Positions 41,594-62,391 of a stretch of DNA of 64,000 nucleotides are shown piece after piece. The stretch's first letter is position 1. Every line of letters begins with the position of its first letter. The position numbers were made by a program, and so were the translations under genes. Below the pieces are notes generated by a model, which was not told where the DNA came from, searched no databases, and worked only from the letters and a program-made list of their open reading frames with translations. Origin of the DNA: Bacillota bacterium (GTDB lineage: Bacteria > Bacillota > Clostridia > Peptostreptococcales > Anaerovoracaceae); NCBI GenBank assembly GCA_022770665.1, contig JALEHL010000005.1, positions 13,028-77,027 of the forward strand, in the 5' to 3' direction.

Positions 41594-41616
41594 CGAAAAG
41601 CCGGCTCATCACCGGC
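41594..41616 (-). terminator. Short hairpin plus T-run after ftsZ
   Basis: Minus strand GCCGGTGATGAGCCGGCTTTTCGG. Confidence 0.4.
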
Positions 41617-41628
41617 TCATTCAGCTGT

Positions 41629-42789: not shown

Positions 42790-42850
42790 ACTGATCTTAT
42801 CCTCCTCGGTATATCCCCTGTATGGCCGTGAAATGGCCTGTAATAGAAAT

Positions 42851-42859
42851 ATTGTACCA
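42851..42859 (-). promoter_or_regulatory. Extended -10 element upstream of ftsZ
   Basis: Minus strand TGGTACAAT (TGnTAnAAT), about 60 nt upstream of the ftsZ start. Confidence 0.45.
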
Positions 42860-42933
42860 TATATCCGCAGGAAATGCATCTTTTTTCGCTTAAAAAATGA
42901 TGCTAATTTCCCGTTTTTTCACTGGCGCTCCGC

Positions 42934-44929: not shown

Positions 44930-45015
44930 TTCCGCCCACCTCCTGCTCTGCTTCCATAATATGCAGGCGGCCTTGTCCGGGTTCCGGCGCAGACCGGATC
45001 GCCGGTCGCCGGAAA

Positions 45016-45063
45016 GCTGGATCGCCGGAAAGTACAGAAGCTGGATCGCCGGAAAGTACAGAA
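45016..45063. repeat. 24-bp perfect tandem duplication in the murG-murA spacer
   Basis: GCTGGATCGCCGGAAAGTACAGAA x2, with a partial degenerate copy upstream. Confidence 0.85.
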
Positions 45064-45107
45064 AAAGCAGCCTGAAACCGGAAATTCCGGCCTGCAGGCT
45101 GCTTTTT
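45062..45107 (-). terminator. Terminator after murG (A/T tracts on both sides)
   Basis: AAAAAGCAGCCTG...CAGGCTGCTTTTT. Confidence 0.75.
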
Positions 45108-45208
45108 CTGTGCAGATTCTATAAAACGCGTCCCGCCGAATTAACCCGAAATCAGAAAATGCATCATTGCGGTTACTTTCTCGCAGCGCGCTCTGCCCGA
45201 CCGCTTTC

Positions 45209-46309: not shown

Positions 46310-46377
46310 ACGCAGTGCTCCTTCTCTCTGTAATTACGATCTCTGCCTTCCTGGCTTTCCGTTTTTCCGTCCCTAGG

Positions 46378-47652
46378 TCACAGGTCCGCATGCCGCGAGA
46401 CATTCAGAAGAATCCCTGCCGAGGCCATGAACAGCATCAGCGCGTTTCCTCCATAACTGATAAACGGCAGGATAATTCCTGTCGGCGGCATGGACGAAGT
46501 GACAACCGCCACATTGATCGCCACCTGCACACCGATCATGATCGTAATGCCTCCTGCCAGCATCATGCCCAGAAAATCCGGCGCATTCATCGCCACATGG
46601 CATCCGCGCCAGATCAGGATCAGGTAGACGATCATCAGTGCCAGCACACCGAGAAATCCCAGCTCTTCTCCGATGATCGCCAGGATAAAGTCGTTCATCG
46701 GCTCCGGCAGATACAGATTCTTCTGGATGCTGTTTCCCAGACCGAGTCCGGTCAGCCCGCCGGTTCCAAGCGCCAGCAGGGACTGCACCACCTGCCATCC
46801 GTCTCCCAGCATATCCGCGAAAGGATCCAGGAAGCTGAGCAGCCGGTTATACCGGTATCCCCCCTCATCCGCAAAGATCAGAACTACGCCGCCGACAAAC
46901 GCGATGCCGATCAGGGCCGCCAGATGCTGCCACTTCGCGCCGGCAATCATCAGCATACCGCCGACGATAATGCACAGCGTCATCGCCGTGGACATGTTCG
47001 GCTGCTTCATGATCAGTCCGAAATACAGGACCGCCACAGCCAGAACCGGCATCAGGCCGCGCCATACGTTTTCTACCATGCGTGGATTTCTGTCCAGATA
47101 GCCTGCGGTAAAGATGATGGCAGCCACCTTGGCGCATTCGCCCGGCATGATCGTGAACGGAACGCCCCGGATCCCGAGCCACCGGGTCGCACCCATGTCC
47201 GTGATTCCCAGCGGTGTGAAGACCAGAAGCAGCAGCAGCAGGCCCACACCAAAAGCAAGCAGATAGATCTTCCCCCATACGTGATAATCGATCTTATAGC
47301 AGAGCCACAGGAGAACCGTCCCTGCCGCGACCCAGATCAGCTGCTTTTTCAGATACGCGTAAGGGTCTCCGCTTTCCGCGATCGCCGTGTAATAGCTTGC
47401 GCTGAAGATCATCACGGTACCGAAGATCACCAGCACCGCAATGAGACCCATAATAATGAAGTCGCCGGAATGGGCCTTTCCCTTTCCGCCCGCCGCAGTT
47501 CCCGCGTCCGATGCCAGCCTTGTGCCCGAAGCAGGCCCCATGCCCGGGGCGGCATAGCCGGCAGAACGGGACATGGCCGACTCGCCCTGCATCCCGGAAG
47601 CTGCTGCAGAGACAGAATATGAAGTTGTTCTTCCAGAACGACGTTTTCTCAT
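46378..47652 (-). CDS. ftsW: SEDS-family peptidoglycan glycosyltransferase FtsW/RodA
   Basis: 424 aa. Low-complexity N-terminus, then 10 TM. ...LPEPMNDFILAIIGEELGF... and ...SYGGNALM... Confidence 0.88.
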   Translation of the reverse strand: MRKRRSGRTTSYSVSAAASGMQGESAMSRSAGYAAPGMGPASGTRLASDAGTAAGGKGKAHSGDFIIMGLIAVLVIFGTVMIFSASYYTAIAESGDPYAYLKKQLIWVAAGTVLLWLCYKIDYHVWGKIYLLAFGVGLLLLLLVFTPLGITDMGATRWLGIRGVPFTIMPGECAKVAAIIFTAGYLDRNPRMVENVWRGLMPVLAVAVLYFGLIMKQPNMSTAMTLCIIVGGMLMIAGAKWQHLAALIGIAFVGGVVLIFADEGGYRYNRLLSFLDPFADMLGDGWQVVQSLLALGTGGLTGLGLGNSIQKNLYLPEPMNDFILAIIGEELGFLGVLALMIVYLILIWRGCHVAMNAPDFLGMMLAGGITIMIGVQVAINVAVVTSSMPPTGIILPFISYGGNALMLFMASAGILLNVSRHADL

Positions 47653-47670
47653 ACATCAAACCCCTTTTTA

Positions 47671-49080
47671 TCAGGAACCCAGGTGTGCCACGCAGTCTTT
47701 GAAGTGGTCGCCCCGCTGCTCGAAATTGTCATACATATCCCAGCTTGCACAGGCAGGGGAGAGCAGGACCGTATCACCAGGCACCGCCATCTCGCTGGCC
47801 TTCTGCACGCATTCGTTCATATCCCTGGCGTAAGAATAATTTTTGAAACCGCACCGGTCTGCCGCTTCCGCGATCAGCCTGCCGTCCCGGCCCAGCAGGA
47901 TCATATGCTTCACGCTGCCGTGGAACTGGCGGATCAGCTCGTCAAACGTCTGTCCCTTTCCGTCGCCGCCGGCGATCAGGATGATGTTCTTCTCAATGGC
48001 GCGCAGTGCCGTAACCGTGGCATCCACGTTGGTTCCCTTCGAATCGTTATAATATTTTACGCCGTTAATCTCGCCGGAGAACTCGATTCTGTGCGGCACG
48101 CCGCGGAAGTTCCGCAAAGTATCCCCAATGACCTGCGGATCCACTCCGGCGAAGTAGGAAACCGCCGCTGCGGCCAGGGCGTTTTCCACATTGTGGCCGC
48201 CGATGATCTGCAGCTCCTCCGTGCCGCAGAAAGTGATCAGCTCGCCTTCCTCATTCCGCAGCACCATCTTTCCGTCCTTCACGAAAGCACCGAATTCCAG
48301 CTCCTCTTTCCGGCTGAACGGGACCACCTTCGCTTTGCATCCGTATTTCTGCGGAAGGGCGAAACAGTCCTTATCGTCAAAGTTGACCACGCAGTAGCCT
48401 GACGCGTCCTGATTGGCGAACACCTTCGCCTTGGCCTCTCCGTACTGCTCCATGGTATGATGGCGGTTCAGATGATCCGGCGTCAGATTCAGAATCGCCG
48501 AAACCACCGGCTTGAAATAGCGGGTGGTCTGCAGCTGGAAGCTGCTGGTCTCCGTCACCAGCCAGTCGTCTTCGTCTGCGTCCAGCGCCTTGGAGATCAC
48601 TGCCACTCCGATATTTCCCACCACATGGGTGCTCCGTCCCGATGCCCTGAAAATCTCTCCGGTCAGCGTCGTGGTGGTCGTCTTGCCGTTGGTGCCCGTT
48701 ATGGCGATGAAATGGCCGCGGCCGATCCGGTAGGCGATCTCCAGCTCCCCGATGATCTCCACACCGGCTTCTTCCGCCTCCCGGATGAACGGCAGTTCCG
48801 GACTGACGCCCGGGCTGAGGATCATCATGTCGAACTGGCTCATATCTTCCGGCACGCAGCCCAGATACAGTCCCAGATTCTCCCCTCCCAGAGAGCCGGT
48901 CAGGAAATTGATCAGCTGACCGTCGATCTCATCCTGTGACTTGGCATCCTGCACCGAGACCTCCGCGCCCAGCTTCAGCATGGCCTGAACTGCAGCGATG
49001 CCGGATTTTCCGAGGCCAACAACAAGTACTTTTTTTCCTCTGATATTCTCTAGATTTCCATTCATGTTTCTGTTTTCCAT
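47671..49080 (-). CDS. murD: UDP-N-acetylmuramoylalanine--D-glutamate ligase
   Basis: ...KKVLVVGLGKSGIAA... and ...AITGTNGKTTTTTL... Confidence 0.95.
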   Translation of the reverse strand: MENRNMNGNLENIRGKKVLVVGLGKSGIAAVQAMLKLGAEVSVQDAKSQDEIDGQLINFLTGSLGGENLGLYLGCVPEDMSQFDMMILSPGVSPELPFIREAEEAGVEIIGELEIAYRIGRGHFIAITGTNGKTTTTTLTGEIFRASGRSTHVVGNIGVAVISKALDADEDDWLVTETSSFQLQTTRYFKPVVSAILNLTPDHLNRHHTMEQYGEAKAKVFANQDASGYCVVNFDDKDCFALPQKYGCKAKVVPFSRKEELEFGAFVKDGKMVLRNEEGELITFCGTEELQIIGGHNVENALAAAAVSYFAGVDPQVIGDTLRNFRGVPHRIEFSGEINGVKYYNDSKGTNVDATVTALRAIEKNIILIAGGDGKGQTFDELIRQFHGSVKHMILLGRDGRLIAEAADRCGFKNYSYARDMNECVQKASEMAVPGDTVLLSPACASWDMYDNFEQRGDHFKDCVAHLGS

Positions 49081-49160
49081 TCTTTTTCACCTCGACTTTC
49101 TCTAAAACTGACAGGCGGCGCACAGGCACCCTACCCGCGTAGACGCCCGCCGGCGCCGGA

Positions 49161-50153
49161 TCAGATATTCATCACCAGAAGCGCCAGCAGGCAGAACAGC
49201 AGCGTCAGTCCCCAGAACATCGCCACCACTTTCCGCTCCTCCATGCCGGACAGCTCGAAATGATGATGCAGCGGAGCCATCTTGAACACCCGTTTTCCCG
49301 TCTTTTTAAACACGGCCACCTGAATGATCACAGACAGTGCCTCCAGCACGTAGATCAGTCCGGCTATCGCCAGCAGAAATTCCATTTTCATCATCACCGC
49401 ACCGGCGGCCAGCGCACCGCCCAGCGCCATGGAACCGGTATCGCCCATGAAGATTTTCGCCGGATTCCGGTTATACATCAGGAATCCCAGGCAGCCTCCC
49501 GCGATCCCGCCGAAAAACAGGACCTCCGCGGAGAAACCGAACGCGATCCCCCCGACGACCATAAAGAATGCCACCAGCGCCGTCACGCCGGAGGCCAGAC
49601 CGTCCAGACCGTCGGTCAGGTTCACCGCGTTGCTCATCGCCACCATGACAAAAACTATAAACGGCACATACAGCCATCCGAAGTCCACATACACATCTGC
49701 AAACGGGATCCACACTTCCGTTCCGCCGCCCAGGCTGCCACCGGAGAAATACGCGGCGTACACTGCAAAGCCCAGGGAAAAGACCAGCTGCATCACGATC
49801 TTCTGCTTCGGGTTCAGACCCAGATTGTTCTTCTTAATGGCTTTCTCATAGTCATCAATGAATCCGATCAGCGCGAAAAGCACCATCACGACCATCGGAA
49901 CCAGTATTTTCACGGACATGCTCCCCAGCGCCGTGTTCACCAGCAGGCTGGACACAATCGCGCCGGTAATGATCGCAATACCGCCCATGCTCGGCGTCCC
50001 CGTCTTTTTCAGATGTGACTGCGGCCCCTCTTCCCGGACATACTGCTGAAACTGCTTCTTTTTCAGAAACGGGATCAGCTTCGACGTGACAAACGCGCTG
50101 ATGACCCATCCTGTGACTAACGTGATTACTGCATACATAAGGGGTGTATCCAT
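49161..50153 (-). CDS. mraY: Phospho-N-acetylmuramoyl-pentapeptide transferase
   Basis: 330 aa. ...GTPSMGG..., ...NAVNLTDGLDGLA..., ...MGDTGS..., ...APLHHHFE... Confidence 0.95.
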   Translation of the reverse strand: MDTPLMYAVITLVTGWVISAFVTSKLIPFLKKKQFQQYVREEGPQSHLKKTGTPSMGGIAIITGAIVSSLLVNTALGSMSVKILVPMVVMVLFALIGFIDDYEKAIKKNNLGLNPKQKIVMQLVFSLGFAVYAAYFSGGSLGGGTEVWIPFADVYVDFGWLYVPFIVFVMVAMSNAVNLTDGLDGLASGVTALVAFFMVVGGIAFGFSAEVLFFGGIAGGCLGFLMYNRNPAKIFMGDTGSMALGGALAAGAVMMKMEFLLAIAGLIYVLEALSVIIQVAVFKKTGKRVFKMAPLHHHFELSGMEERKVVAMFWGLTLLFCLLALLVMNI

Positions 50154-50161
50154 AGTTTTTT

Positions 50162-51577
50162 CTACTCCTGTTCCTCAAATATTTTTTTCACGACGTTTTC
50201 CATCTCCATCGCCCGGGATCCCTTCACCAGCACCACGTCCCCCGGACGGATCATCTGGCGGATTTCCTTCATCAGATCATCCCTGGATCCATAGTGCTTC
50301 ACGCAGTCCGCACCGAGAAACGGTGCCGCGCCCTCTCCGATAAACCGGGCCTGCTCTCCCACGGTGATCAGAAAATCGATCCGATGACTTCCCGCATAGG
50401 CGCCGACTTCCCGATGATACTTCTCGCTTTCCGGTCCCAGCTCCTTCATATCGCTGAGGATCGCCACCTTGCGGATCCCTCGGGTTGCGACCAGCGTATT
50501 GATGGCAGACCGCATGGACTCCGGCGCGGCATTATAGGTGTCGTCGATGACCTTGATGCCGTTCTTTCCCCGGATATTCAGGCGCTTGGCAGTCAGCTCC
50601 GCATTCTGCAGGCCGGCGATCGCCGTTTCCAGATCGATCCCCAGGATTTCACCCGCTGCGAGAGCCAGCGTGGCATTCATCGCATTATGGGCGCCGGGCA
50701 CCGGAAGCGCCACTTCATACTGTTTATGATTGCGGTCCAATGTGTATTTTATACCTTTATCTCCGAAATCGCAAACATTTGAGACAACAAAATCACTTTT
50801 TCCGTCATTTCCCGCTGTAACAACCCGGTAGTTTCCGCTGACCATATCTTTCTGCAGCAGATCGCAGCTCTGATTCACCACCAGAACCGAATCCGGCGTG
50901 AAATATCCGGTCACCTCCATCTTTGCCTTGCGGATTCCTTCCCGGCTTCCCAGATTTTCGATATGCGAAATGCCGATGGTGGTGATCACCGCGATATCCG
51001 GCCGCACGATGTCCGCCAGCGTATCAATCTCTCCGAAGCTGTCCATGCCCATTTCCAGCACCGCCACTTCCAGGTCCTCATCGAAGGACAGAATCGTCAG
51101 CGGCAGGCCGAACTCATTGTTATAGTTTTTTTCATTCCGCCCCGTCTTATACCGGGTGGAGGCCACATAATAAAGCATATCCCGGGTGCTGGTCTTGCCC
51201 ACGCTTCCGGTGACCGCGATCTTCTTTTTCAGCGGAAGCTGCGCGATGTAGTATTTCGCCAGCTGCTGGAGCGCCTTCAGCGTATCCGGCACCAGAATGA
51301 TGCTGACGTCTTCTTTTTTCAGCCCCGCCCCTCTCAAAACAGATTCGTCCGGCGCTTTTTCTTCGTCGGAGATGACCAGAATCCGGCATCCCTTCTTCAG
51401 CACGTCGCCCAGATACGCGTGTCCGTCTGTCTTCTCCCCTTTCATCGCGAAGAACCCGTTTTCCGGCTGCACCTGTCTCGAATCGATACAGGCCCCCTTC
51501 ATGCTCCTGTCCGTGCTTCCCTGCAGCAGCCTGCCTCCGGTCTCCTGCAGAATCTCTTTCACTGTAATTGCCTTCAT
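50162..51577 (-). CDS. murF: UDP-N-acetylmuramoyl-tripeptide--D-alanyl-D-alanine ligase
   Basis: MKAITVKEILQETGGRLL... and ...VTGSVGKTSTRDM... Start set to MKAITV. Overlaps the murE 3' end by about 20 nt. Confidence 0.92.
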   Translation of the reverse strand: MKAITVKEILQETGGRLLQGSTDRSMKGACIDSRQVQPENGFFAMKGEKTDGHAYLGDVLKKGCRILVISDEEKAPDESVLRGAGLKKEDVSIILVPDTLKALQQLAKYYIAQLPLKKKIAVTGSVGKTSTRDMLYYVASTRYKTGRNEKNYNNEFGLPLTILSFDEDLEVAVLEMGMDSFGEIDTLADIVRPDIAVITTIGISHIENLGSREGIRKAKMEVTGYFTPDSVLVVNQSCDLLQKDMVSGNYRVVTAGNDGKSDFVVSNVCDFGDKGIKYTLDRNHKQYEVALPVPGAHNAMNATLALAAGEILGIDLETAIAGLQNAELTAKRLNIRGKNGIKVIDDTYNAAPESMRSAINTLVATRGIRKVAILSDMKELGPESEKYHREVGAYAGSHRIDFLITVGEQARFIGEGAAPFLGADCVKHYGSRDDLMKEIRQMIRPGDVVLVKGSRAMEMENVVKKIFEEQE

Positions 51578-51593
51578 GTTTTCTTTTCCCCCA

Positions 51594-53198
51594 TCATGTA
51601 GGATCCGGCCAGATTGATCGAACGATCTCCCTGTCATCAAAACGGATCCTGTTTTTTCCCACATACTGCCATGTTTCATGGCCTTTGCCTGCGATCAGGA
51701 TCAGGTCCTCCGGCCCGCCCTGCCGGACCGCTTCCCGGATGGCAGACGCCCTGTCACAGATGACCTGCCAGCTGCCCCGGCACATTCCTTCTCTTTCTGT
51801 TTCCTCCATGGATGCGGTAATCTCCCGGAGGATGGACTGCGGATCTTCTGTTCGCGGATTATCGGATGTGACGATGCTCAGATCCGCCAGCTCCGCCGCG
51901 GCTCTTCCCATTTCCCGCCGTCGGCTTCTGTCCCGGCAGCCGCCGCAGCCGAAGACAACGATCAGCCGTGACGGCCCGCAGGCCCGCAGATCCGTCAGCA
52001 GCTGCCGCAGCGCCGTGCCGTTATGGGCATAATCCACCAGCACACGGGTCCTGCCTCCGGTATCCACCGGCTCGACTCTGCCCGGCACGCGGACCTGCCG
52101 CAGCGCCCGGCAGATGTCCGGCCAGCAGATCCCCGCGGCCCGCGCGGCGGCTGCCGCGCCGGCCGCGTTGGCACCGTTAAACAGCCCCGGCATGGAAAGA
52201 CGGATTTCCCATTCCGTTTCCGAAGCACCTTCCTCCAGCAGGAAGAAGGTGCCGGGCGGTTCTTTTTTCCGGTCCGTCTGCAGATACCGGCACCGGCAGT
52301 CTGCCTTTTCGTTCTGCCCGAACGAAAGGACCTGCTCCGGCATGCCCGTCTCGGCTCTGCGGACCGTCAGAAGCTGACGCCAGAGCGGCGTGTCCTCATG
52401 GATGACCGCAGTCCGGCACTGGCGAAACAGTTTACTCTTCCAGTACACATAGTCTGCGAAATCTTCATGCTCCCCCTCGCCGATATGATCCGGCGTCAGG
52501 TTCGTGAAAATACCCAGGTCAAACCGGATGCCCTCCACGCGGCTCTGCATGAGTCCCTGACTGGACACTTCCATCACCACCGCACGGCAGCCGGCCTGTT
52601 CCATATCACGGCACCACCGCTGCACATCCGACGACTGGGGCGTCGTCTGCTCCGCCTCCTGAAAATGGCCCTCCCAGCCGTTTTCCACGGTGCCGATCAG
52701 ACCGGTCCGGATGCCCCCCTCCTCAAGGGCCGCCCGCAGCATATATGCGGTGCTGGTCTTTCCCTTGGTCCCTGTGATGCCGATCATATACAGTCTGCTG
52801 CAGGGATCCTGATAAAAGCGGATGCTCATAAGAGCCAGCGCCCTGCGCACATTCTCCACCAGCAGGATCGTGACAGTCCGCCCCTGCCCGGACGCCCGGC
52901 CCGGCAGATTTTGCGAAACCGCGTCTGCGACCTCATCTGAGATCGCGTCGGAAACCGCGTCTGAGATCGCGTCTGAAACGGACTCTGGCAGAGGCTCCTG
53001 CACAATCAGGACCTCCGCCCCCCGGCGCACCGCCTCCCCCGCATGCAGAATCCCGTTTTCCTTCCTGCCCGGGATCGCGAAAAACGCCGCTCCCGGCCCG
53101 GCTTTCTCTGAAAAGTAAATCAGCGAAGTCACTTCCTTTTCTATGGTGCCCTGCAGCAGTGTATACTGCAGATTCCCGGTCAGATCCGTCAGCTTCAT
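51594..53198 (-). CDS. murE: UDP-N-acetylmuramoyl-L-alanyl-D-glutamate--2,6-diaminopimelate (or L-Lys) ligase with repeat insertion
   Basis: 534 aa. ...GITGTKGKTSTAYM... and ...DNPRTEDP... N-domain insertion SVSDAISDAVSDAISDEVADAVSQ. Confidence 0.9.
   Translation of the reverse strand: MKLTDLTGNLQYTLLQGTIEKEVTSLIYFSEKAGPGAAFFAIPGRKENGILHAGEAVRRGAEVLIVQEPLPESVSDAISDAVSDAISDEVADAVSQNLPGRASGQGRTVTILLVENVRRALALMSIRFYQDPCSRLYMIGITGTKGKTSTAYMLRAALEEGGIRTGLIGTVENGWEGHFQEAEQTTPQSSDVQRWCRDMEQAGCRAVVMEVSSQGLMQSRVEGIRFDLGIFTNLTPDHIGEGEHEDFADYVYWKSKLFRQCRTAVIHEDTPLWRQLLTVRRAETGMPEQVLSFGQNEKADCRCRYLQTDRKKEPPGTFFLLEEGASETEWEIRLSMPGLFNGANAAGAAAAARAAGICWPDICRALRQVRVPGRVEPVDTGGRTRVLVDYAHNGTALRQLLTDLRACGPSRLIVVFGCGGCRDRSRRREMGRAAAELADLSIVTSDNPRTEDPQSILREITASMEETEREGMCRGSWQVICDRASAIREAVRQGGPEDLILIAGKGHETWQYVGKNRIRFDDREIVRSIWPDPT
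52921..52992 (-). repeat. In-frame 12-nt tandem repeat (about 6 units) encoding (SDAI/SDAV)n in murE
   Basis: Plus strand gcgtctgcgacc tcatctgagatc gcgtcggaaacc gcgtctgagatc gcgtctgaaacg gactctggcaga. Confidence 0.85.
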
Positions 53199-53241
53199 GC
53201 TTTGATTTCCTTTCTGTTTCAGGACTCTCTAGTTCCGGATT

Positions 53242-55254
53242 TTATTCTTTATAAATGTAAACCACCGCGTTTTTCTTCACCTTGGTGCCTGCCTTCGGAT
53301 ACTGGGCCGCCACGATGAAGTTGTCATCGTCCCGCGTGTCCTTCGGCCGGCTGTATTTCAGCTCCTTGCCGCCGATGATGCCGACTGCCTCGCTGAACTC
53401 TTTTCCGACCACATCCGGCACGACAGTGTAGTTGCCCTCCATGGCCGCCTGCTCCTCTTCCGTATATTCCGGCTCCACGCCCAGATACCGCAGCGTATCC
53501 TGCAGAACGGACTTCGCGATCGGCGCTGCCACCTGAGATCCGTAGAAAGCGCCTTTCGGACTGTCTACCACCACCAGAATGGAAACCTGCGGATCATCCA
53601 TCGGCGCCATGCCCAGAAACGATGCATAGTAGTACTGGCCGTACTTTCCGGTTCCTTCATCGACCCGGTTGGCCGTTCCGGTCTTGCCGCCGACCCGGTA
53701 GCCGGGGATCTTCGCATTTCCGCCGCCGCCTTCCGAAACCACATATTCCATGATATCCCGCATTTCACGGGCGGTCTTGGAAGAAAGGACTTTGCGGACA
53801 ATGGTCTTGTCGTATTCTTTTACCACATTGCCTTCGGAATCTGTCAGCGCCTTCACATAGTGCGGCTGCAGCAGATCCCCGCCGTTTCCGATGGCGTTCA
53901 CGGCAGTCAGCAGCTGGACCGGTGTCACGGAGATACTGTGTCCGTAGCCCATGGTCGCCAGTTCCACCTGCCCCACATCGTCGATATTGTACATGATCGA
54001 GCTGGTTTCTCCCGGATAGTCCACGCCGGTCTTATCGGTGATGCCGTACAGATTCAGGTATTTATAAAACCGTTCCTTCCCCATTTTCAGCGCGATTTTG
54101 GCATGAGCCGGATTGCAGGAATTTCCCACAGCCTCCTTCACTGTCTGGGTTCCGTGATCCCGCGGACTCCAGCAGTGCAGCTTCACGCCGGATACATCCA
54201 CATAGGTGTTGCAGCTGAAGGTGTCTGACGTGGAGATGACTCGCTCCTCCAGCGCCGAGGAGACGGTGATCAGCTTGAACGTGGATCCCGGCTCGTACGT
54301 GTCGCTGACAATCGGGTTGCGCCAGAGTTTGAACAGATACTGATTCTGCTCCTCCGTGCTCAGCTTCGAGAACTCCTCTTTCTGCGCCTCGTCATCCGGA
54401 ACCGTCGCATGGTTCGGATCAAATCCCGGCGATACCACATTCGCCAGAATTTCCCCGGTGTCCGGATCCATCACCAGGCACATGATCCGGCTGGCATTGG
54501 TCTTTTCCATCCCTTCTGCCACCGCTTTCTCCGCATAATACTGGATCGCCTCGTCGATGGTCAGAACCACATTCAGCCCGTCTTTCGCTTCATGATACTC
54601 TTCGGATCCGTCCACCAGCTCATTGCCGGCCACATCGATGTTTCTGACCCACCGGCCGGAAACACCGCTGAGATACTGGTCATATTCCAGCTCGATCCCG
54701 GTCCGTCCGGTATTATCGTCTGTCACGCTTCCCAGAACCTGCGAAGCGAAGTTTCCCAGGGAATAGTACCGCCGGTTGTCCTCCGAGATCTGCACGCCGG
54801 AAAGCTTCAGCGCCCGCACCTGATCGGCCGTCTCCTTATCCAGATATTTCGCCACCTTGACCAGCGCCTGTTTCCGGGTGATAAGCTCCCGGACCTCCTC
54901 CGCCTCCTGTCCGGTGATCTTCGCCAGTTTCTCCGCGATGGAAGTGACCTTTTCCTCCGGCAGCGCGTTTCCGTCGCTGTCTTTCAGCAGCTGCGCCGGA
55001 CGGACCCATACGGAATAGCAGGTGATGCTGCTGGCCAGCTCCTTGCCGTTGCGGTCATAGATGGTGCCCCGCTTCGCAGCGATCGGCACATCCTGCGTCT
55101 GCTGCTCCCTGGCTTTCTCCGTCAGTTCATCCGCCCGCACGATCTGATGCCAGCCGATCCGGAACGTCAGTCCCACCAGAAGCAGACACAGCAGCAGAAA
55201 ACCCAGCGCAATTCTCTTTTTCTGTTTTACCGATACCTTTCTTTTCTGATTCAT
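53242..55254 (-). CDS. Class B penicillin-binding protein (FtsI/PBP2B-type) with C-terminal PASTA domain
   Basis: 670 aa. N-terminal TM, ...EPGSTFKLITVSSALE... (SxxK), ...GKTGTA... (KTG), C-terminal ...YTVVPDVVGKEFSEAV... Confidence 0.9.
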   Translation of the reverse strand: MNQKRKVSVKQKKRIALGFLLLCLLLVGLTFRIGWHQIVRADELTEKAREQQTQDVPIAAKRGTIYDRNGKELASSITCYSVWVRPAQLLKDSDGNALPEEKVTSIAEKLAKITGQEAEEVRELITRKQALVKVAKYLDKETADQVRALKLSGVQISEDNRRYYSLGNFASQVLGSVTDDNTGRTGIELEYDQYLSGVSGRWVRNIDVAGNELVDGSEEYHEAKDGLNVVLTIDEAIQYYAEKAVAEGMEKTNASRIMCLVMDPDTGEILANVVSPGFDPNHATVPDDEAQKEEFSKLSTEEQNQYLFKLWRNPIVSDTYEPGSTFKLITVSSALEERVISTSDTFSCNTYVDVSGVKLHCWSPRDHGTQTVKEAVGNSCNPAHAKIALKMGKERFYKYLNLYGITDKTGVDYPGETSSIMYNIDDVGQVELATMGYGHSISVTPVQLLTAVNAIGNGGDLLQPHYVKALTDSEGNVVKEYDKTIVRKVLSSKTAREMRDIMEYVVSEGGGGNAKIPGYRVGGKTGTANRVDEGTGKYGQYYYASFLGMAPMDDPQVSILVVVDSPKGAFYGSQVAAPIAKSVLQDTLRYLGVEPEYTEEEQAAMEGNYTVVPDVVGKEFSEAVGIIGGKELKYSRPKDTRDDDNFIVAAQYPKAGTKVKKNAVVYIYKE

Positions 55255-55329
55255 ATTTCCCTTTCAGATGATAAAAAGCCAGACCGCGAGATTTCTATGC
55301 AGTTGTCTGGCTTGTTGATTTCTATGAAA

Positions 55330-55839
55330 TTATTTTTTCTGCCCGGCGTATGCCTTCTGCCGGAGAACCTGCCCAAAATTGTCCATCAGCTTCGTGTCCT
55401 CCTCGATGTAGATGCACTGGCTGCTCTTCGGATACCGCATATGGAGCTCTTTCATCGCGTAGGATTCGATCTGCTCGATGCTGGTGCTTTCATCGATCTT
55501 CATATTCAGCACATCAATCTCGTCTTCCAGACTCATGTTGGCCTTCGTCAGGCTGTTGATGCTGCACTGGATATTGGCCGCATACGCATTCAGAACCAGT
55601 GTCCCGATCAGAAGCACCGCCACGAAAACCGTCACCCCGATCAGCTGCCGAAGCTCCCCGGCCGTCAGGCTCTGGGTCTTTTTCTCCTGCTGCCGCGCCG
55701 GTTCCGGCCGTTTCCTGGACCGCGGAATCCTGCTGTCTCCAGGCTCCCGCCCCGGATAGCTCCCCGGGTACGGCTGCTGCAGATCCTGTCTGTACGTATA
55801 TTCATATTGTTCGTCACGGGCTCTTTCGCTTGCTGCCAT
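55330..55839 (-). CDS. ftsL: FtsL-like cell division protein
   Basis: Position between rsmH and the PBP gene. Single TM segment IGVTVFVAVLLIGTLVLNAYA followed by a coiled coil. Pro/Arg-rich N-terminus. Confidence 0.7.
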   Translation of the reverse strand: MAASERARDEQYEYTYRQDLQQPYPGSYPGREPGDSRIPRSRKRPEPARQQEKKTQSLTAGELRQLIGVTVFVAVLLIGTLVLNAYAANIQCSINSLTKANMSLEDEIDVLNMKIDESTSIEQIESYAMKELHMRYPKSSQCIYIEEDTKLMDNFGQVLRQKAYAGQKK

Positions 55840-55859
55840 GATTGTGTACTCCTCAAAAT

Positions 55860-56804
55860 CTATTTTTTCTGCAGTTTCTCTGCGATGCGCAGTTTGGCGC
55901 TTCTTGCGCGCGGATTCTTCTCAAGCTCCTCCGCGGAAGGTGTGACAGGCTTGCCGGTCACTTTCCGGATATCCGGTTTCTTTCCGCAGACACAGACCGG
56001 AAATTCTTTCGGACAGGTGCACGGATTCACATGCCGTGCGATAATATCCTTCACGATCCGGTCCTCCAGGGAATGGAACGTGATAATACAGAGCCTTCCG
56101 CCCGGCGCCAGCACGTCGCAGAAGTCCTCCACGGCCCTCTCCAGCTGGCCCAGTTCATCATTGACCTCGATGCGGATCGCCTGAAACGTCCGCTTGGCCG
56201 GATGGGGTCCATCTCTTCGCGCAGAGGCCGGAATCGCCGCCTTGATGACATCCACCAGCTCAAAGGTGGTTTCCAGGGGCTTTTCTTTTCGCCGTTTCAC
56301 GATAAACTGCGCGATGCGAGAAGCCCAGCGCTCTTCGCCGTATTTTGAAATGATCTCTCTCAGTTCTTTCTCATCGTATTCATTCACCACATCCCAGGCC
56401 GTAAGCGGATCCTGCTGATTCATCCGCATATCCAGCGGCGCATCCTGCATATAGGAGAAGCCCCGCTCCGGATTGTCCAGCTGAAACGACGAAACGCCCA
56501 GATCCAGCAGCGCGCCGTCGATCTGTCCGATCCCCAGCTCCTGCAGAACTTCTTTGATATCCGCATAGTTGCTCTGCACGAACTCTTTGCGGCAGGGATA
56601 TTCTTCCAGACGCTTCCGGGCTGCCCGGTGCGCATCCTCATCCCGGTCAATGCCGATAAACAGGCCGTCTTTTCCCAGTCTGCCGCAGATGCCGCTGCTG
56701 TGTCCGCCGCCGCCCATGGTGCCGTCCACATAGATCCCGTCTTCCCGGATCCGGAGGCCTTCCATGCACTCGTCGAAAAGTACAGAAGTATGTCTGAATT
56801 CCAT
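55860..56804 (-). CDS. rsmH: 16S rRNA (cytosine1402-N4)-methyltransferase
   Basis: [17 protein letters not shown]...[12 protein letters not shown]...[11 protein letters not shown]... Confidence 0.95.
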
Positions 56805-56847
56805 CTTCTTTTCTCCTCCTTATCGTCCGGTTTCGTCACCGGGTTTC

Positions 56848-57279
56848 TCAGAAATGATATTCCTTCAGCGCATCGGCAAAGGCTGCAGTGTCCATCTTGC
56901 TTCCGTTCTCCGGCGCATCCCATACGCTGCGGCTCCAGACTTCGATCTTGGACATGGCGCCCAGGGTCACCAGTTCCCGGCTGATCTGCGCGTAGTCCTT
57001 CAGTTCCTGCGGGATCACGATCCGTCCCTGTTTATCCAGCTCGCACTCCACCGCATTGCCGCAGAAGTGCCGGATAAAGGCCCGGACCTTCGGATCCGAT
57101 TCCGGAAGCTGCGCCACTTTTTCCATCTGCTTTTCCCAGTCTGTCATGGTGTAGATGTTCAGGCAGGTGTCCAGTCCCCGGGTCACAACGCACCGGTTCC
57201 CCAGCTCTGTCCGCAGACGGGAAGGAACGATCATGCGGTTCTTCTCATCGATGGAATTGTACGTGGTTCCCATGAACAT
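56848..57279 (-). CDS. mraZ: Transcriptional regulator MraZ
   Basis: MFMGTTYNSIDEKNRMIVPSRLR... and a second SpoVT/AbrB-like repeat ...LDKQGRIVIPQELK... Start set to MFMGT. The ORF-track extension covers the operator. Confidence 0.92.
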   Translation of the reverse strand: MFMGTTYNSIDEKNRMIVPSRLRTELGNRCVVTRGLDTCLNIYTMTDWEKQMEKVAQLPESDPKVRAFIRHFCGNAVECELDKQGRIVIPQELKDYAQISRELVTLGAMSKIEVWSRSVWDAPENGSKMDTAAFADALKEYHF

Positions 57280-57313
57280 AGAGACAGTCCCCCAACCTAA
57301 ATCATATACTATC

Positions 57314-57338
57314 TCCACTATACACCACTTTCATCCAC
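57314..57338 (-). promoter_or_regulatory. MraZ operator: three direct GTGG(A/T) repeats at 10-bp spacing
   Basis: Minus strand GTGGATGAAAGTGGTGTATAGTGGAG, immediately upstream of mraZ. Confidence 0.75.
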
Positions 57339-57375
57339 ATAGCAAGAATTTTTGCCGGTTTTTTGAGATTTTTTC

Positions 57376-57403
57376 ACCACCAAAATCCGGAAAGCATAGA
57401 ATA
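57376..57403 (+). promoter_or_regulatory. Candidate SigK-type (late mother-cell) promoter for the Cys-rich gene
   Basis: AC-N17-CATAGAATA matches the B. subtilis SigK consensus AC-N16-17-CATANNNTA. No good TTGACA-type -35 for the embedded TAGAAT. Confidence 0.3.
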
Positions 57404-57462
57404 TGGTAAGTCAGTTTCCTGACGAAACACCTGGAAATTCAGAAAGGAAAGAGGTTGATTCC

Positions 57463-58632
57463 ATGCATGATAATACAGTCTATCTGAACAAAATATTCTT
57501 CGAGGGGAATCAGGTTTCCTGCCCGATTCTTTCTCCGCTGATCACCAGTGATGAAACGTTCACCCGCCAGATCGCCTTCAGCCCGCTGCAGGACCGCTGC
57601 AGCCCGTCCCGTCATGACCGGCACGACTGCAGAAGCGGCCGGACCAGCGGGTGCGGCTGTCAGTGCGGCGGCGAGTGCGGCCGCGGATGTGAATGCGAAT
57701 GGGGATGCGGATGCTGCTCCCCGTGCGGCTGCAGCTCTCCATGCGGCTGCAGCTCCGCATGCTGTGATTTTACATTTGATGAGGATACTGAATTTACCGT
57801 AGAAGATGCGGTCATCACGGTGACAGGATTTCACCTGAGCCCGTCTTCTTCCTTCGGCAGAAACCAGGTCACGATCGACGGATTCCCGGTAACCGATCTG
57901 ACCCTGGTAAACGGCCAGTACCTGGCGGATCTGTCCGGTATTATGGACGAGATCACCAGATGTCCGCAGACGGAGCGTCATCGCTGCCGCAGCTGTTTTT
58001 CGGATGATCGCTGCCGCATCGAGTGCAGCAATGACGGCCATTTCTTCCTGGCACAGGTTCCCGGACCGTGGATTCTTTCCGCGGCCATCGTCCTGGAAGG
58101 AACTGCCTCCAGCGGTTCCCGCACCTGTCATTTCCGCGCCTGCTTCCGGACCCGTTCTGACACCTGCATGCCCGGCATCTCCGTTGCCGGCAGCGACAAC
58201 TTCGCGCTGCAGTGTGTGGAAATCCCGTGTCAGGCAGCAGGCATCGCTCCGACACTGCTCTTTGACTTCGACGCCTGCGCTTCGCTGCTGAACCCGCGGC
58301 TGACCGTGGCCGGCTCCGGAGAATCCGCGCACCTTCGCCTTTCCGGCACTCTGGTCCTGACGCCGGAGATCCGTCTGCAGGTAACCCGTCCAGCCCGCTT
58401 CCAGATTTCCGCCAAAGAACTGGATATGCACTGTGACAACCTGGGACAGTGTGATCCGTGTGCCATGGACTGCTGCTGCGAGGAAGAAGAAGAGACTTCT
58501 TCCCGTCCGTCCGGCTCATCCGGTTCATCCGGCTCGTCCGGCTCGTCCGGCTGCGGCAGCTGCGGCAGGCAGACGGCAGCCTGCCAAACATCTGCCTGCC
58601 AGTGCTGTGAAACCAACGGCTATCGCTTCTGA
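57463..58632 (+). CDS. Orphan cysteine-rich protein (41 Cys in 389 aa by my count), function unknown
   Basis: ORF 57403..58632. Start set to MHDNTV (ATG 57463), 8 nt after GGAAAGAGG. Cys clusters CGCQCGGECGRGCECEWGCGCCSPCGCSSPCGCSSACC and CDNLGQCDPCAMDCCC...CGSCGRQTAACQTSACQCC. Own terminator. No signal peptide or TM seen. Confidence 0.75.
   Translation: MHDNTVYLNKIFFEGNQVSCPILSPLITSDETFTRQIAFSPLQDRCSPSRHDRHDCRSGRTSGCGCQCGGECGRGCECEWGCGCCSPCGCSSPCGCSSACCDFTFDEDTEFTVEDAVITVTGFHLSPSSSFGRNQVTIDGFPVTDLTLVNGQYLADLSGIMDEITRCPQTERHRCRSCFSDDRCRIECSNDGHFFLAQVPGPWILSAAIVLEGTASSGSRTCHFRACFRTRSDTCMPGISVAGSDNFALQCVEIPCQAAGIAPTLLFDFDACASLLNPRLTVAGSGESAHLRLSGTLVLTPEIRLQVTRPARFQISAKELDMHCDNLGQCDPCAMDCCCEEEEETSSRPSGSSGSSGSSGSSGCGSCGRQTAACQTSACQCCETNGYRF
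58510..58554 (+). repeat. In-frame 9-nt tandem repeat (5 units) encoding (SGS)n
   Basis: tccggctca tccggttca tccggctcg tccggctcg tccggctgc. Confidence 0.85.
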
Positions 58633-58661: not shown

Positions 58662-58700
58662 CCGCCGGCATTCACGGATCCCGTGAATGCCGGCGTTTTT
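58662..58700 (+). terminator. Rho-independent terminator of the Cys-rich gene
   Basis: CGCCGGCATTCACGG-ATC-CCGTGAATGCCGGCG followed by TTTTTT. Confidence 0.85.
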
Positions 58701-58921
58701 TCCAGCCTGGTAGAGCCGTTCCCGTAAACCAAATCCAGGGAAAAATCGAAAACAGGTTAACACGAATCCGCCCATACAGCGTCTGACGGGCTCCTGGCGC
58801 CGCAAAAAGCAAAAAAAATAAACCAAACTGCAGTTTTTTCCTGCAAGTGGTTTATAAAATCCTGCGGCAGGGGCGGCGGAAGCCCGATTGTGTTAACCAG
58901 AAATGCAAAATGAACGAAAAT

Positions 58922-59079
58922 GGTTAACCGGGCTACTCAGGTTCGCCAGACTGCTCAAGTTAACCGGGCTGCCGGGTTAACCGGGCTACTCAGGTTCGCC
59001 AGGCTGACAAGTTAACCGAGCTGCCGGGTTAACCGGGCTACTCAGGTTCGCCAGACTGCTCAAGTTAACCGAGCTGCCG
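58922..59079. repeat. Three tandem copies of a 52-53-bp non-coding unit, each carrying two GTTAACC sites
   Basis: Unit GGTTAACCGGGCTACTCAGGTTCGCCAGACTGCTCAAGTTAACCG(G/A)GCTGCCG at 58922..58974, 58975..59026, 59027..59079. All frames are interrupted by stops. Confidence 0.9.
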
Positions 59080-59154
59080 GATTCTCCGGACTGCCGGCAG
59101 CCGACGATGGAAATAAAGTCCGCAAGCAAAAAAGGACGCCAATCGAATCGAAAT

Positions 59155-59992
59155 GGTAAGGGTCAAATTGCGGGCACATCAGATCTAAAATTTAAGCCCC
59201 TTGTTAGTCAGAGCATAAACTGACATGCAAGGGGCTTTTCTCTAGTCTGTTTCTTCTTTTCTTCTGCATTCATCCGGTACTTCATCAGACCATGGCAGGA
59301 TTCGGTCGATGGCTGCCTTATCTGCCAAATCGATTCTGCGCACCTGATCCAGAAGGTAATTCAAATATTCAAATGGCAGAAGATCATTTTCCATTGCTGT
59401 TACCACGATACTGTAGAGTACTGCACTGGACTGCGCTCCGCGTGCCGTGTTGCAGAACAGCCAGTTCTTTCTTCCCATAACAAATGGTTTGATTGCCCGT
59501 TCTCCTCGGTTGTTCCATACCTCCAGCCGTTCATCCAGCAGGCTGTTCCTCAGGAAATTTTCGTTGTTCACTGTGTAGTTCAGCGCCTCCAGATACAGGC
59601 TTTTCGGCGGCATTTTTCTCAGCTCATTTTCTGCCCATGCAAAGAACGCCTCGAATGTTTCCCACATTCGGGTTTGTCTGAATTTTATTCGCTCTTCCGC
59701 AGTTTTCAGGCTGCGGCATTGGGCATCGAGTGCAAAGATCTTATCACACCAGATGACACCCTGCTGTATGCGTTTCGCCCGGGGACTTTCCTTTTCGGTC
59801 AGCCCGTTCAGTGCATCGGCATAGCGTCTTCTCGTATGTGCCAGACAGCCGACTCGTATGACATCTTTGCCTGCGTGATTGTAGGCTTTGTATCCGTCTG
59901 TCTGCAGATATCCGCAGTAGCCCTGCAGGAAGGACTCCGGAACGAAACCCGCTCTGCTTCCGCGGTCGTATCGAAGCTTTTTTCGCCGGAAA
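59155..59992 (-). mobile_element. Truncated IS66-family element (right end only)
   Basis: Terminal sequence GTAAGGGTCAAATTGCGGGCAC at 59155 resembles IS66-type GTAAG-starting inverted repeats. Contains only the C-terminal half of a transposase. No left end, tnpA or tnpB seen. Confidence 0.6.
59242..59975 (-). pseudogene. IS66-family transposase, C-terminal fragment
   Basis: ORF-track 141 aa (...NRGERAIKPFVMGRKNWLFCNTARGAQSSAVLYSIVVTAMENDLLPFEYLNYLL...). My in-frame upstream extension reads ...YDRGSRAGFVPESFLQGYCGYLQTDGYKAYNHAGKDVIRVGCLAHTRRRY... without a start codon. Confidence 0.75.
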
Positions 59993-60134: not shown

Positions 60135-60350
60135 TCAGTATTTGATATTCTTCTTTCCCAGGCGGCTCTTGTATTTATTCCGGCTGTTGCTGAAGATCGC
60201 GTGCTTTCTCCGTTCCGCACGCTCGGTCAGACGTTTTATCACCACCACCAGAATCAGAACTGCCAGAACCGCAGCCGCAGCGCAGAGCAGCCCCTCCTGC
60301 ACGGACCAGACACCGTCGATCTGAATTCCGATTTTTTCCGCAAATGTCAT
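60135..60350 (-). CDS. Small single-pass membrane protein (71 aa), unknown function
   Basis: MTFAEKIGIQIDGVWSVQEGLLCAAAAVLAVLILVVVIKRLTERAERRK... AGGGAG RBS and a dedicated terminator. Confidence 0.5.
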   Translation of the reverse strand: MTFAEKIGIQIDGVWSVQEGLLCAAAAVLAVLILVVVIKRLTERAERRKHAIFSNSRNKYKSRLGKKNIKY

Positions 60351-60459
60351 ATCTGTTTCTCCCTGATTTCATGAATTCAAAATATTGTAAAGCATATTCT
60401 TCTTTTTCCACTGAAATACTAACTACAGTATACCATAAAAACGTCAAGGGAGTGTGAAA

Positions 60460-61587
60460 ATGCGTCAAATTTTTTATCAGACAAAAAATATTTCCGGCAT
60501 GATTCTGGTCCTCAGTCCGCTTCTGGGCAGTGCTGCAGCGCACTGGCCCTTTTTCTTCTATCTGATACTGCTGGCCGGTGCCGCCTGCGCCCTGCCCCTC
60601 TCCTGTGCGGCGCTGCAGCATCTCCCCTTCCGGATCTGGCGCCGCCTCTCCGCCCTGTCCGCCTGCCTGGCACTGCTCCTGCTCTCTCTCACCGTTTCCC
60701 GCCCGCTGCAGAATCCCGCAATCCTGTGGAGCGGAGCCTTTCTGCTGGGGATCTCCTGCAGCAGACTGCTTCTGCTTTTCCCACCCCTTGTGGCCGTGGG
60801 ATGGTATCGCCGCAGTCCGGCCGCGGCCCTCGGCATCCTCTGGTCCGGCAGTTTTCTTCTTCTGCCTTTCTGGCGCTTTCTGCTTCACACCGCGCCGGGC
60901 TTTTTTTTCTGCGCCGCGTCCGTGTGCCTGCTCACGGGGCTCTTTGGTTTTCTCCGGCAGCCGCCGGTTGACTGCCGCCGCCTGGAGAATCCCATGACCC
61001 AGGGCAGAACCGGGATCTTTGCCCGTCCATCCCTGTTCACCGGCGCGATTTCCGCTTCTCTGGGCATGGGTCTTGCCATGGTGCTGCGCGCGGATCAGAC
61101 AGACAGTCCCATGGCAGGGCGTATCCTCTCCCCGGCCTTTCCGCTGATTTTCTGCCTTGCCCTGGCTGCCGGCTCCCTCTTTACCGCCCGCTTCATCGAA
61201 AGGAAAGGGATCTTCAGCGGCTGCATTCTGCTGCTTTTCCTGTGTGAAAGTGCCGCAGCCTGCCTGGGAAACCCGGACCGCCCGCTGCTGTCTGCTGCCG
61301 GGCTGTATCTCCTGGCTGGCGCCGCCGGAAGCGTGCCGGTCATTCTTCCGGTCCTGACCCTTTATCTTTACGGCATCATCGCTTACCCGCAAAATCTGTG
61401 CCGCCTTCTCTTTTTCTTTCCTGCCGGGCTGCTGTGCGCCCTTCCCTTCTGCTACCTGGCACTAGAGGGGCAGCTGGCTGCCGAGGAACCGGCGGTCTTT
61501 CTTCTCTTCCTGCTGGTAGGCAGTTTTTTCTGCATATTTTCTGCATGGAAACACCGTTTCATCATATTAAAGAACCGGATTTTGTGA
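60460..61587 (+). CDS. Polytopic membrane protein (MFS-like topology), unknown function
   Basis: About 375 aa, very hydrophobic, with roughly 10-12 predicted helices. Start set to ATG 60460, 7 nt after AAGGGAG. The antisense 405-aa ORF is low complexity and was rejected. Confidence 0.6.
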   Translation: MRQIFYQTKNISGMILVLSPLLGSAAAHWPFFFYLILLAGAACALPLSCAALQHLPFRIWRRLSALSACLALLLLSLTVSRPLQNPAILWSGAFLLGISCSRLLLLFPPLVAVGWYRRSPAAALGILWSGSFLLLPFWRFLLHTAPGFFFCAASVCLLTGLFGFLRQPPVDCRRLENPMTQGRTGIFARPSLFTGAISASLGMGLAMVLRADQTDSPMAGRILSPAFPLIFCLALAAGSLFTARFIERKGIFSGCILLLFLCESAAACLGNPDRPLLSAAGLYLLAGAAGSVPVILPVLTLYLYGIIAYPQNLCRLLFFFPAGLLCALPFCYLALEGQLAAEEPAVFLLFLLVGSFFCIFSAWKHRFIILKNRIL

Positions 61588-61686: not shown

Positions 61687-62391
61687 ATGAGTGCATTTGT
61701 ATCGTTCGAACATGTAAAGAAAGTTTATCAGATGGGAGAAGTTTCCATCGAGGCGCTCCGGGATGCGACCTTCGAGATTGAAAAAGGAGAGATCTGTGTG
61801 ATCGTCGGCGCCTCCGGCGCCGGCAAAACCACTCTTCTGAACATTCTCGGCGGCATGGACAGCCTCACTTCCGGCAGAGTCTTTCTGGACGGCCAGGAGA
61901 TCTCCAGCCTCAATGCCCGTCAGCTGACTACATACCGCCGGTACGAAATCGGATTTGTTTTCCAGTTCTATAACCTGGTCCAGAATCTGACTGCCGTGGA
62001 GAACGTATCCCTGGCCACCCAGATCTGCAAGAACCCCATGGACTCAGAGGAAGCACTGCGAAAAGTCGGCCTCGGCGACCGGCTGTACAATTTCCCGGCA
62101 CAGCTTTCCGGCGGAGAACAGCAGCGGGTAGCCATCGCCCGCGCTCTGGCGAAGAATCCGAAACTGCTTCTCTGCGATGAACCCACCGGCGCACTGGACT
62201 ACAACACCGGCAAATCGATCCTCAAGCTGCTGCAGGATACGGCCCGCAGCACCGGCATGACCGTGGTCATCATCACCCACAATCAGGCCATCACACCGAT
62301 GGCAGACCGCATTATCCATGTGAAGAGCGGCATCGTCTCCTCGGTGGAGATCAACCAGCACCGTGTCCCGGTCGAAGAAATTGAATGGTAG
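61687..62391 (+). CDS. ABC transporter ATP-binding protein (MacB/LolD/FtsE-like)
   Basis: ...[13 protein letters not shown]... (Walker A), ...[15 protein letters not shown]... (signature), ...[12 protein letters not shown]... (Walker B). Confidence 0.93.

Follow-up and report, generated by a model that had tools for sequence, protein, structure and literature searches.

Self-assembling cysteine-rich proteins are load-bearing material of the spore surface, where they set resistance, permeability and interaction with the host. Few such proteins have been characterised (ExsY/CotY, CdeC, CdeM and CsxA/CsxC), and all of them come from cultured pathogens or model organisms. Here we describe a gene for a 389-aa cysteine-rich protein in a 64,000-nt stretch of DNA from a Bacillota bacterium of the Anaerovoracaceae (contig JALEHL010000005.1 of assembly GCA_022770665.1, positions 13,028 to 77,027 of the forward strand; hereafter the window), where it lies next to mraZ. 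We think, with moderate confidence, that it encodes a late mother-cell structural protein of the spore coat or exosporium, cross-linked by disulfides in the manner of CdeC, CsxA and ExsY. That kind of protein, cysteine-rich, sigma-K-dependent and part of the spore envelope, is already known; what is new is the family, for which no curated model exists and which shows neither detectable homology to characterised members nor a matching fold in the PDB.

CdeC of C. difficile (CD1067), like the window protein, comes from the order Peptostreptococcales, is of comparable length (405 versus 389 aa), consists to about 9-10% of cysteine and lacks a signal peptide. Its AlphaFold2 (AF2) model resembles that of the window protein in having disordered cysteine-rich tracts, a beta core with strands of at least 20 residues and a disordered tail. 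CdeC is sigma-K-dependent by experiment, and the window family has a sigma-K-type promoter motif. The two proteins differ in that the cysteine-rich region of CdeC is N-terminal to the whole core, whereas the first three core strands of the window protein precede its first cysteine tract, and in that NCBIfam names CdeC homologs whereas the window protein has no NCBIfam match. CsxA and CsxC of C. sporogenes and C. botulinum can be likened to the window family by description, being cysteine-rich, all-beta, self-assembling and disulfide-cross-linked; CsxA has 25 cysteines in 299 aa. CsxA, CsxC and CdeC have been proposed to be cysteine-rich proteins of the SPOCS/DUF3794 fold, in which two three-stranded beta-sheets make up a barrel and the trimer intertwines into a tripod, and to be arranged in disulfide-stabilised lattices (bioRxiv 10.64898/2026.09.03.749163). 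The likeness to ExsY, CotY and CotZ of Bacillus (PF10612) is one of analogy only: the strategy proposed for them in the literature, of a mother-cell, cysteine-rich protein that self-assembles and undergoes cooperative disulfide cross-linking, would be shared, but these proteins are about 160 aa long rather than 389 aa, their fold class differs, and PF10612 is unmatched by the window protein at E<=10.

Gene, family and predicted architecture

The coding sequence (57463..58632, + strand) specifies 389 aa and a stop codon, and the product contains 41 cysteines (10.5%), 46 serines, 36 glycines and only two lysines. A first-pass annotation of this DNA, made from the letters alone, had described an open reading frame (ORF) of this length and cysteine number with its own ribosome-binding site (RBS) and a strong terminator, and all of these are present. 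The RBS, GAAAGAGGT, is at 57447..57455 (+), 7 nt upstream of the ATG, and homologous loci keep GAAA[AT]GAGGT at the equivalent place; the intrinsic terminator at 58663..58701 (+) combines a stem of 15 bp, 11 of them GC pairs, with a 3-nt loop (stem-loop 58663-58695) and a TTTTTT run. The annotation had also counted 15 cysteines in one stretch, a count that holds, but the cluster (CGCQCGGECGRGCECEWGCGCCSPCGCSSPCGCSSACC, residues 64-101) is 38 residues long, not 37. The acidic EEEEE and Ser-Gly linker that it described (SGSSGSSGSSGSSG) is found in the translated protein, as is the second cysteine cluster (CGSCGRQTAACQTSACQCC, residues 364-382). We agree too that the protein has no signal peptide or transmembrane helix: its N-terminus does not resemble a signal sequence, and the highest 19-residue Kyte-Doolittle mean, 1.46, falls within the beta core and is too low for a transmembrane helix.

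Homologs align with the protein from end to end, the full-length ones at 33-67% identity, and nucleotide differences from five homologs cluster at codon position 3 (59/42/133 at positions 1/2/3 in the comparison with locus L001). The reading frame is kept in relatives; the first-pass annotation had named the lack of such conservation as something that would count against its interpretation. Because full-length homologs exist and the differences are biased towards codon position 3, the ORF at 57463-58632 is a genuine gene and not a chance ORF of GC-rich DNA. The GC content at third codon positions is 0.69, like that of neighbouring genes. Antisense ORFs (for example 57439..58431, - strand, 330 aa) are by-products of composition, and are ruled out by the codon-position bias. 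A longer ORF that begins at the ATG at 57403 was rejected as well: its RBS is weak, and the -10 box of the putative promoter described below ends at 57402, which would place the transcript start downstream of this ATG and so favours the start codon at 57463.

A search of 5.8 billion clustered proteins returned 53 homolog clusters (E 1e-142 to 1e-49; 318-426 aa), none of them with a Pfam domain or an informative name, and a filter-free hidden Markov model (HMM) search of 1.84 billion representatives gave only 91 matches at E<=1e-3. Judged by these searches, the family is small and limited to one lineage. A scan of genome collections yielded 44 loci, all in metagenome-assembled genomes (MAGs) of uncultured Bacillota from human, goat, buffalo, chicken and other guts; the taxon labels, where given, are Anaerovoracaceae, Family XIII, Ca. 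Fimisoma, CAG:238 and CAG:145, and we take a few bins named Bacteroides or Absicoccus to be binning errors. Pfam and NCBIfam (both at E<=10), PHROGs and PDB sequences gave no match for the window protein, so the profile searches that the first-pass annotation had suggested lead to no characterised family. Its word 'orphan' is apt only insofar as the protein falls into no curated family; relatives exist in at least 90 sequence clusters. A look-up of 10 distant relatives returned only 'hypothetical protein', from MAGs of Family XIII or Anaerovoracaceae.

The more distant members are about 30-35% identical and have the motif NLVYMDKVYSYN. The subfamily furthest removed, with members of 291-371 aa, is that of AT-rich organisms, and profile comparison makes its homology with the window family clear (hhalign probability 99.8%, E 7e-30); one member, P0134, has a library-wide E-value of 4e-6. 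A large protein search with this AT-rich subfamily gave four matches, none with a protein name.

We derived the anatomy of the protein from the homolog alignment (A1) and from an AF2 model of the window protein (mean predicted local distance difference test score (pLDDT) 70.5, predicted template modelling score 0.64, 158 residues above a pLDDT of 90). The alignment has five parts: a conserved N-terminus, a variable Cys/Gly tract, a conserved core, a variable linker and a conserved tail. The N-terminal part (residues 4-40; 57472..57582, +) carries the motif NxVYLNKIFyD...SCP and is modelled as strands E5-18, E22-27 and E33-40 (pLDDT about 90), which pack into the beta core. Tract 1 (residues 46-101; 57598..57765, +) holds 17 cysteines, including the run of 15; orthologs have 13-61 residues and 5-18 cysteines in this tract. 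The conserved all-beta core (residues 102-335, about 235 residues; 57766..58467, +) has a pLDDT mostly above 90. The acidic/Ser-Gly linker and tract 2 (residues 337-389; 58471..58629, +) are again variable, tract 2 having 1-52 residues and 1-11 cysteines in orthologs, and end in the conserved tail ACQCCeTNGYxF. Cysteine content across family members is 8.3-12.4%, and eight cysteines are invariant in A1, namely C167, C184, C188, C256, C272, C324 and C330, together with C337 just past the core.

The structure prediction, a step that the first-pass annotation had also proposed, thus gives an all-beta core with disordered cysteine tracts. The N-terminal strands and residues 110-320 form one all-beta domain in the model, which includes a C-terminal beta hairpin (residues 264-314) with strands of 20 and 25 residues, and both cysteine tracts are predicted to be disordered (pLDDT below 50). 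Tract 1 interrupts the beta core after its first three strands, and tract 2 is a C-terminal tail. A Foldseek comparison of the model with the PDB returned noise only (best E 0.08, TM-score below 0.11); the CdeC model, used as a control, was equally empty, so the comparison has no bearing on whether the protein has the SPOCS fold.

A putative sigma-K-type promoter and links to sporulation

Two conserved elements are prominent in the aligned upstream regions: the RBS, and a box gCATATAaT, with AC exactly 17 nt upstream of CATA. The consensus over loci is tCACc-N15-gCATATAaT. We compared it with the sigma-K consensus of C. difficile, which has AC at -35 and CATATAAT at -10, with sigma-E being told apart by ATA at -35 (Saujet et al., PMC3789822); cdeC (CD1067) and cdeM (CD1581) have both been placed in the C. 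difficile sigma-K regulon (PMC3789822). The strict pattern AC-N17-CATAnnnT is present in 26 of the 32 distinct upstream regions, where it precedes the conserved N-terminal motif by 77-132 nt, and the relaxed pattern AC-N17-CATA in 30 of the 32; the background rate of the strict pattern in the remaining DNA of the loci is 0.015 per 220 nt. For one further locus, L015, the strict motif is just beyond the 175-nt search range. The 17-nt spacers differ freely between loci, so it is the two boxes alone that are under selection.

The window copy spans 57376..57402 (+), with the -35 AC at 57376-57377, a 17-nt spacer and the -10 box CATAGAAT at 57395-57402. By its sequence this is a putative sigma-K-type promoter, with a predicted transcription start near 57409-57411 and a predicted 5' untranslated region (UTR) of about 50 nt. 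Among the more divergent lineages, those of P0064 and P0126 have an AC-N17-CATA match upstream, which in the P0064 lineage is an AC-N17-GCATATATT box 108 nt upstream of the start codon; the upstream regions of P0101 and P0134 have no clean AC-N17-CATA match. A second match in the window, AC-N17-CATATACT at 57284-57310 (+), is the sole exact AC-N17-CATATAnT in the 64 kb (0.09 expected) and overlaps the 5' UTR and start of mraZ. We set it aside as a promoter candidate because it is probably a chance match, the closest relatives being without it.

Gene contexts of distant homologs also point towards sporulation. P0134 is encoded in a cluster of spore-surface-type genes (locus L048; Logan DRR526061 contig, 1-12260). 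Six paralogs encoded there are about 157-161 aa long, and four of these match PF12673 (SipL/SPOCS). Two larger products have 400 aa, with DUF11/CLIPPER and SipL domains, and 1304 aa, with CLIPPER. Several further proteins are small and cysteine-rich, among them one of 79 aa with 13 cysteines and one of 185 aa with 16 cysteines. SPOCS and DUF11 domain types have been described in the exosporium and in the anchoring of spore appendages, and the anchor of the F-ENA-3 spore appendage has the architecture DUF11 plus a CsxA-like domain (PMC12357932). The gene for homolog P0103 has, at a distance of 2 kb, a gene for a typical alpha/beta-type small acid-soluble spore protein (SASP; MTANKKSTAKPALDSMKTEIANELG...GYVGGYMTKKLVEMAEQQL; locus L053, 11043-11246, -), which is evidence that at least the MAG of P0103 stems from an endospore former. 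A tblastn search for SASP genes over all 54 locus sequences was positive only for L053. Spores of one uncultivated member of the Anaerovoracaceae have been imaged (PMC12357932).

Relation to known spore-surface proteins and competing readings

The first-pass annotation had pointed to CdeC and CdeM as known proteins of a very cysteine-rich kind. Kinship with them is not supported, the profile-profile probability against a real CdeC alignment being below 1%; the likeness is one of function and architecture and does not amount to demonstrated homology. Membership of the CdeC family was rejected on hhalign probabilities of 0.4% for A1 against the CdeC alignment (A2) and 0.2% for A3 against A2; a 103-sequence family alignment against 117 CdeC sequences gave 0.3%, and an HMM comparison with CdeC gave no match. 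The signature motifs listed for CdeC (PMC7677010), namely KKNKRR, HHH, the six NPC repeats, CCRQGKGK and CNECC, do not occur in the window translation. A weak signal against CdeC comes from the AT-rich subfamily alone, with an hhalign probability of 13.8% (E 2e-3), rising to 64.8% (E 6e-5) with larger alignments. The confident stretch is only about 50 columns long, comprising a cysteine-rich segment and one strand (AIEANRIFD / TYMDVIYDE). We treat this signal as a lead, one that is likely to reflect compositional bias.

A relationship to the SPOCS fold is harder to judge from sequence models. PF12673 is not matched at E<=10 by the window protein or six relatives, and a genuine CdeC and a Romboutsia CdeC homolog, to both of which published work assigns this fold, are unmatched as well, so the power of this test is low. 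Similarly, the seven PF12673 proteins of L048 score 0.1-1.0% in hhalign against A1, A3 and A4, and the CdeC control (A2) scores 0.2%. Given that the control also scores so low, hhalign is blind to the SPOCS relationship even where that relationship has been claimed, and sequence models clearly under-detect this fold class. UniRef names a Romboutsia CdeC ortholog (CdeC family, P0162 / P0172) 'DUF3794 domain-containing protein' despite the lack of a PF12673 match. The window family may have diverged very far from within the cysteine-rich proteins of SPOCS fold (CsxA, CsxC and CdeC), or its fold may be an independent one.

Our preferred reading, a disulfide-cross-linked structural protein of the coat or exosporium, draws on the late mother-cell promoter motif, the lack of an export signal, the beta core with its long hairpin, the drifting cysteine tracts and the presence of relatives in spore-surface clusters. 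We propose that sigma-K RNA polymerase would transcribe the gene late in sporulation, in the mother cell, from AC-N17-CATAGAAT, as the conserved motif suggests. The absence of a signal peptide or transmembrane segment fits a protein made in the mother cell, in whose cytoplasm the product, to go by its sequence, would stay. By analogy with described proteins, and in view of the long terminal hairpin in the model, the all-beta core would then self-associate at the forespore surface. The Cys/Gly tracts and core cysteines would form intermolecular disulfides, yielding a resistant layer as for CdeC, CsxA and ExsY.

Several observations weigh against this reading. Some concern the promoter: its DNA, as found in the window and the nearest relatives, can also be read as a weak sigma-A promoter (TTCACC-18-TAGAAT), the -10 box CATATAAT includes TATAAT, and the loci are related by descent, so that the counts of conserved motifs are not counts of independent events. 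Against a sigma-A assignment, most loci have no TTGACA-like -35 element, and the 'CA' before TATA is kept in every aligned locus. Others concern the organism. Most cultured Anaerovoracaceae are described as non-sporulating, and in a machine-learning survey the majority of Peptostreptococcales MAGs came out as non-sporulating, with a single exception from the Anaerovoracaceae. There is no recognisable sporulation gene within the 64-kb window: the penicillin-binding protein (PBP) and FtsW of the division and cell wall (dcw) cluster have SpoVD and SpoVE as their best matches, at scores below the respective cut-offs (618.7 bits versus 688, and 366 bits versus 448.8), and ftsZ is followed by an RlmB-like methyltransferase gene and pheST rather than by spoIIGA-sigE-sigG. 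Lastly, profile comparisons established homology with none of the coat or exosporium proteins that have been characterised by experiment.

An alternative that draws on the same sporulation evidence is that the protein is a morphogenetic organiser of the spore envelope, a scaffold that recruits other coat proteins in the manner of CotE or SipL, rather than a cross-linked bulk component. Indeed, one fold class has been described in both roles (bioRxiv 10.64898/2026.09.03.749163). We consider this unlikely, since the published organisers of that class are cysteine-poor and the structural ones cysteine-rich, and cysteines make up 8-12% of the window family; moreover, a late sigma-K promoter suits components of the outer layers more than early, sigma-E-dependent organisers. 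We give equally little weight to the more far-reaching idea that the Anaerovoracaceae have evolved an independent, so far unseen fold for a disulfide-cross-linked lattice, convergent beside ExsY/CotY, the SPOCS proteins (CsxA, CsxC and CdeC) and CdeM, with the position next to mraZ reflecting regulatory coupling.

The first-pass annotation had left two readings side by side, a spore-surface protein and a metal binder. The former gains support from the promoter, the SPOCS/DUF11 cluster, the SASP gene and the CdeC-like architecture, and the latter is weakened by the variation of the cysteine tracts. A cytoplasmic protein of metallothionein-like or redox-buffering type, acting in the homeostasis of metals (Zn, Cu, Cd) or of Fe-S or sulfide, would account for the CGC, CxC and CC runs, which the window protein shares with metallothioneins and which are typical of metal-thiolate clusters, and the eight invariant cysteines of the folded core could form a defined site. 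The tracts that hold these runs are, however, the least conserved part of the protein; they vary 4- to 5-fold in length and cysteine number, with no conserved pattern, and are predicted to be disordered. A folded beta core of 250 residues is not a feature of metallothioneins, no metallothionein or other metal-binding family of Pfam was matched at E<=10, and metal binding leaves both the sigma-K-type promoter and the spore-cluster context of a homolog unaccounted for. We therefore regard a metallothionein-like role as improbable, slightly more so than an organiser.

If the protein is instead a cross-linked structural component, as we propose, the family would rank as a candidate for a major component of the spore envelope in the Anaerovoracaceae/Family XIII. 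Members of this clade are widespread in gut and rumen and almost wholly uncultured, and their sporulation is disputed and barely documented. The gene with its sigma-K-type promoter could then serve as a marker of sporulation capacity in MAGs of this clade. The protein would also show whether the SPOCS scaffold reaches the Anaerovoracaceae/Family XIII or whether another fold has converged on the same strategy, and it is a tractable target for recombinant self-assembly work.

Linkage to mraZ and the downstream neighbourhood

The cysteine-rich gene and mraZ (56848..57279, -; start at 57279, MFMGTT..., placed from homolog lengths and sequence) are arranged head-to-head across an intergenic region of 183 bp. 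mraZ is the first gene of the dcw cluster (40759-57279, -), which reads mraZ-rsmH-ftsL-PBP-murE-murF-mraY-murD-ftsW-murG-murA-ftsQ-ftsZ, with murA lying inside it. A sigma-A-type promoter for mraZ (TTGCTA-17-TATAGT; 57315..57345, -) is overlapped by three GTGG boxes with a 10-nt period (57338, 57328 and 57318). These resemble the triple-repeat MraZ operator of E. coli, and we take them to be a probable MraZ operator. A conserved CCACCAC element lies at 57373-57379; its window copy includes the -35 AC belonging to the divergent sigma-K-type promoter, and its distance from that promoter varies among loci.

The first-pass annotation had called the position beside mraZ unusual, and the linkage proves stronger than it claimed, adjacency being kept in every Anaerovoracaceae-type locus examined that includes upstream DNA. 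In every such locus of the genome scan the gene is divergent from mraZ, the two being mostly about 200-300 bp apart and in a few cases about 1 kb, and the metagenomic contigs examined have the same arrangement. Of the distant members, P0101 and P0157 are divergent from mraZ and P0103 is four genes away from it. In the P0064 lineage (L045-L047, Family XIII MAGs) the gene is inverted: it immediately precedes mraZ and points the same way, and about 257 bp separate the two. The homologs P0134 and P0126 do not adjoin mraZ. Linkage to mraZ is nonetheless steadier than synteny downstream of the gene. Descent within a single family-level clade suffices to account for it.

The least likely of the readings is that the protein is associated with the envelope or with division, tied to the dcw cluster and co-regulated with or by MraZ through the 183-bp region: adjacency to mraZ is widespread, survives the inversion in the P0064 lineage and outlasts downstream synteny, and the GTGG boxes and the CCACCAC element lie between the genes, with the window's -35 AC inside CACCACC, but the protein lacks a signal peptide, a transmembrane segment and a wall-binding domain, the conserved boxes are of sigma-K rather than sigma-A type, the distance from CCACCAC to the promoter is variable, P0134 and P0126 lie away from mraZ, and shared descent suffices for the synteny. 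In the far-reaching scenario of an independent spore-surface fold, to which we give little weight, the fixed position relative to the mraZ promoter, retained through the inversion, would reflect regulatory coupling: sigma-K RNA polymerase or MraZ bound to the shared 183-bp region might affect both promoters, thereby coupling the division and cell-wall operon to late mother-cell expression.

Downstream of the gene, a block of further genes is found in 26-27 related loci and is replaced in one subclade. In the window it comprises a small convergent ORF with a single transmembrane segment (71 aa; 60135-60350, -), a polytopic membrane protein with no family match (377 aa; 60454-61587, +), an ABC ATPase (61687-62391, +) and a very long FtsX-type permease, of about 1000 aa in relatives, which runs from 62385 to the end of the window (+). 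The intergenic region between the cysteine-rich gene and this block is enlarged. It contains three tandem 53-bp units (GGTTAACCGGGCTACTCAGGTTCGCCAGACTGCTCAAGTTAACCGAGCTGCCG, 93% matches) at 58922-59080 and a C-terminal fragment of an IS66-family transposase (59242-59667, -; 141 aa, model positions 284-386 of 387). Because of these repeats and the IS66 remnant, the next conserved gene is 1.8 kb away, compared with about 50-470 bp in relatives.

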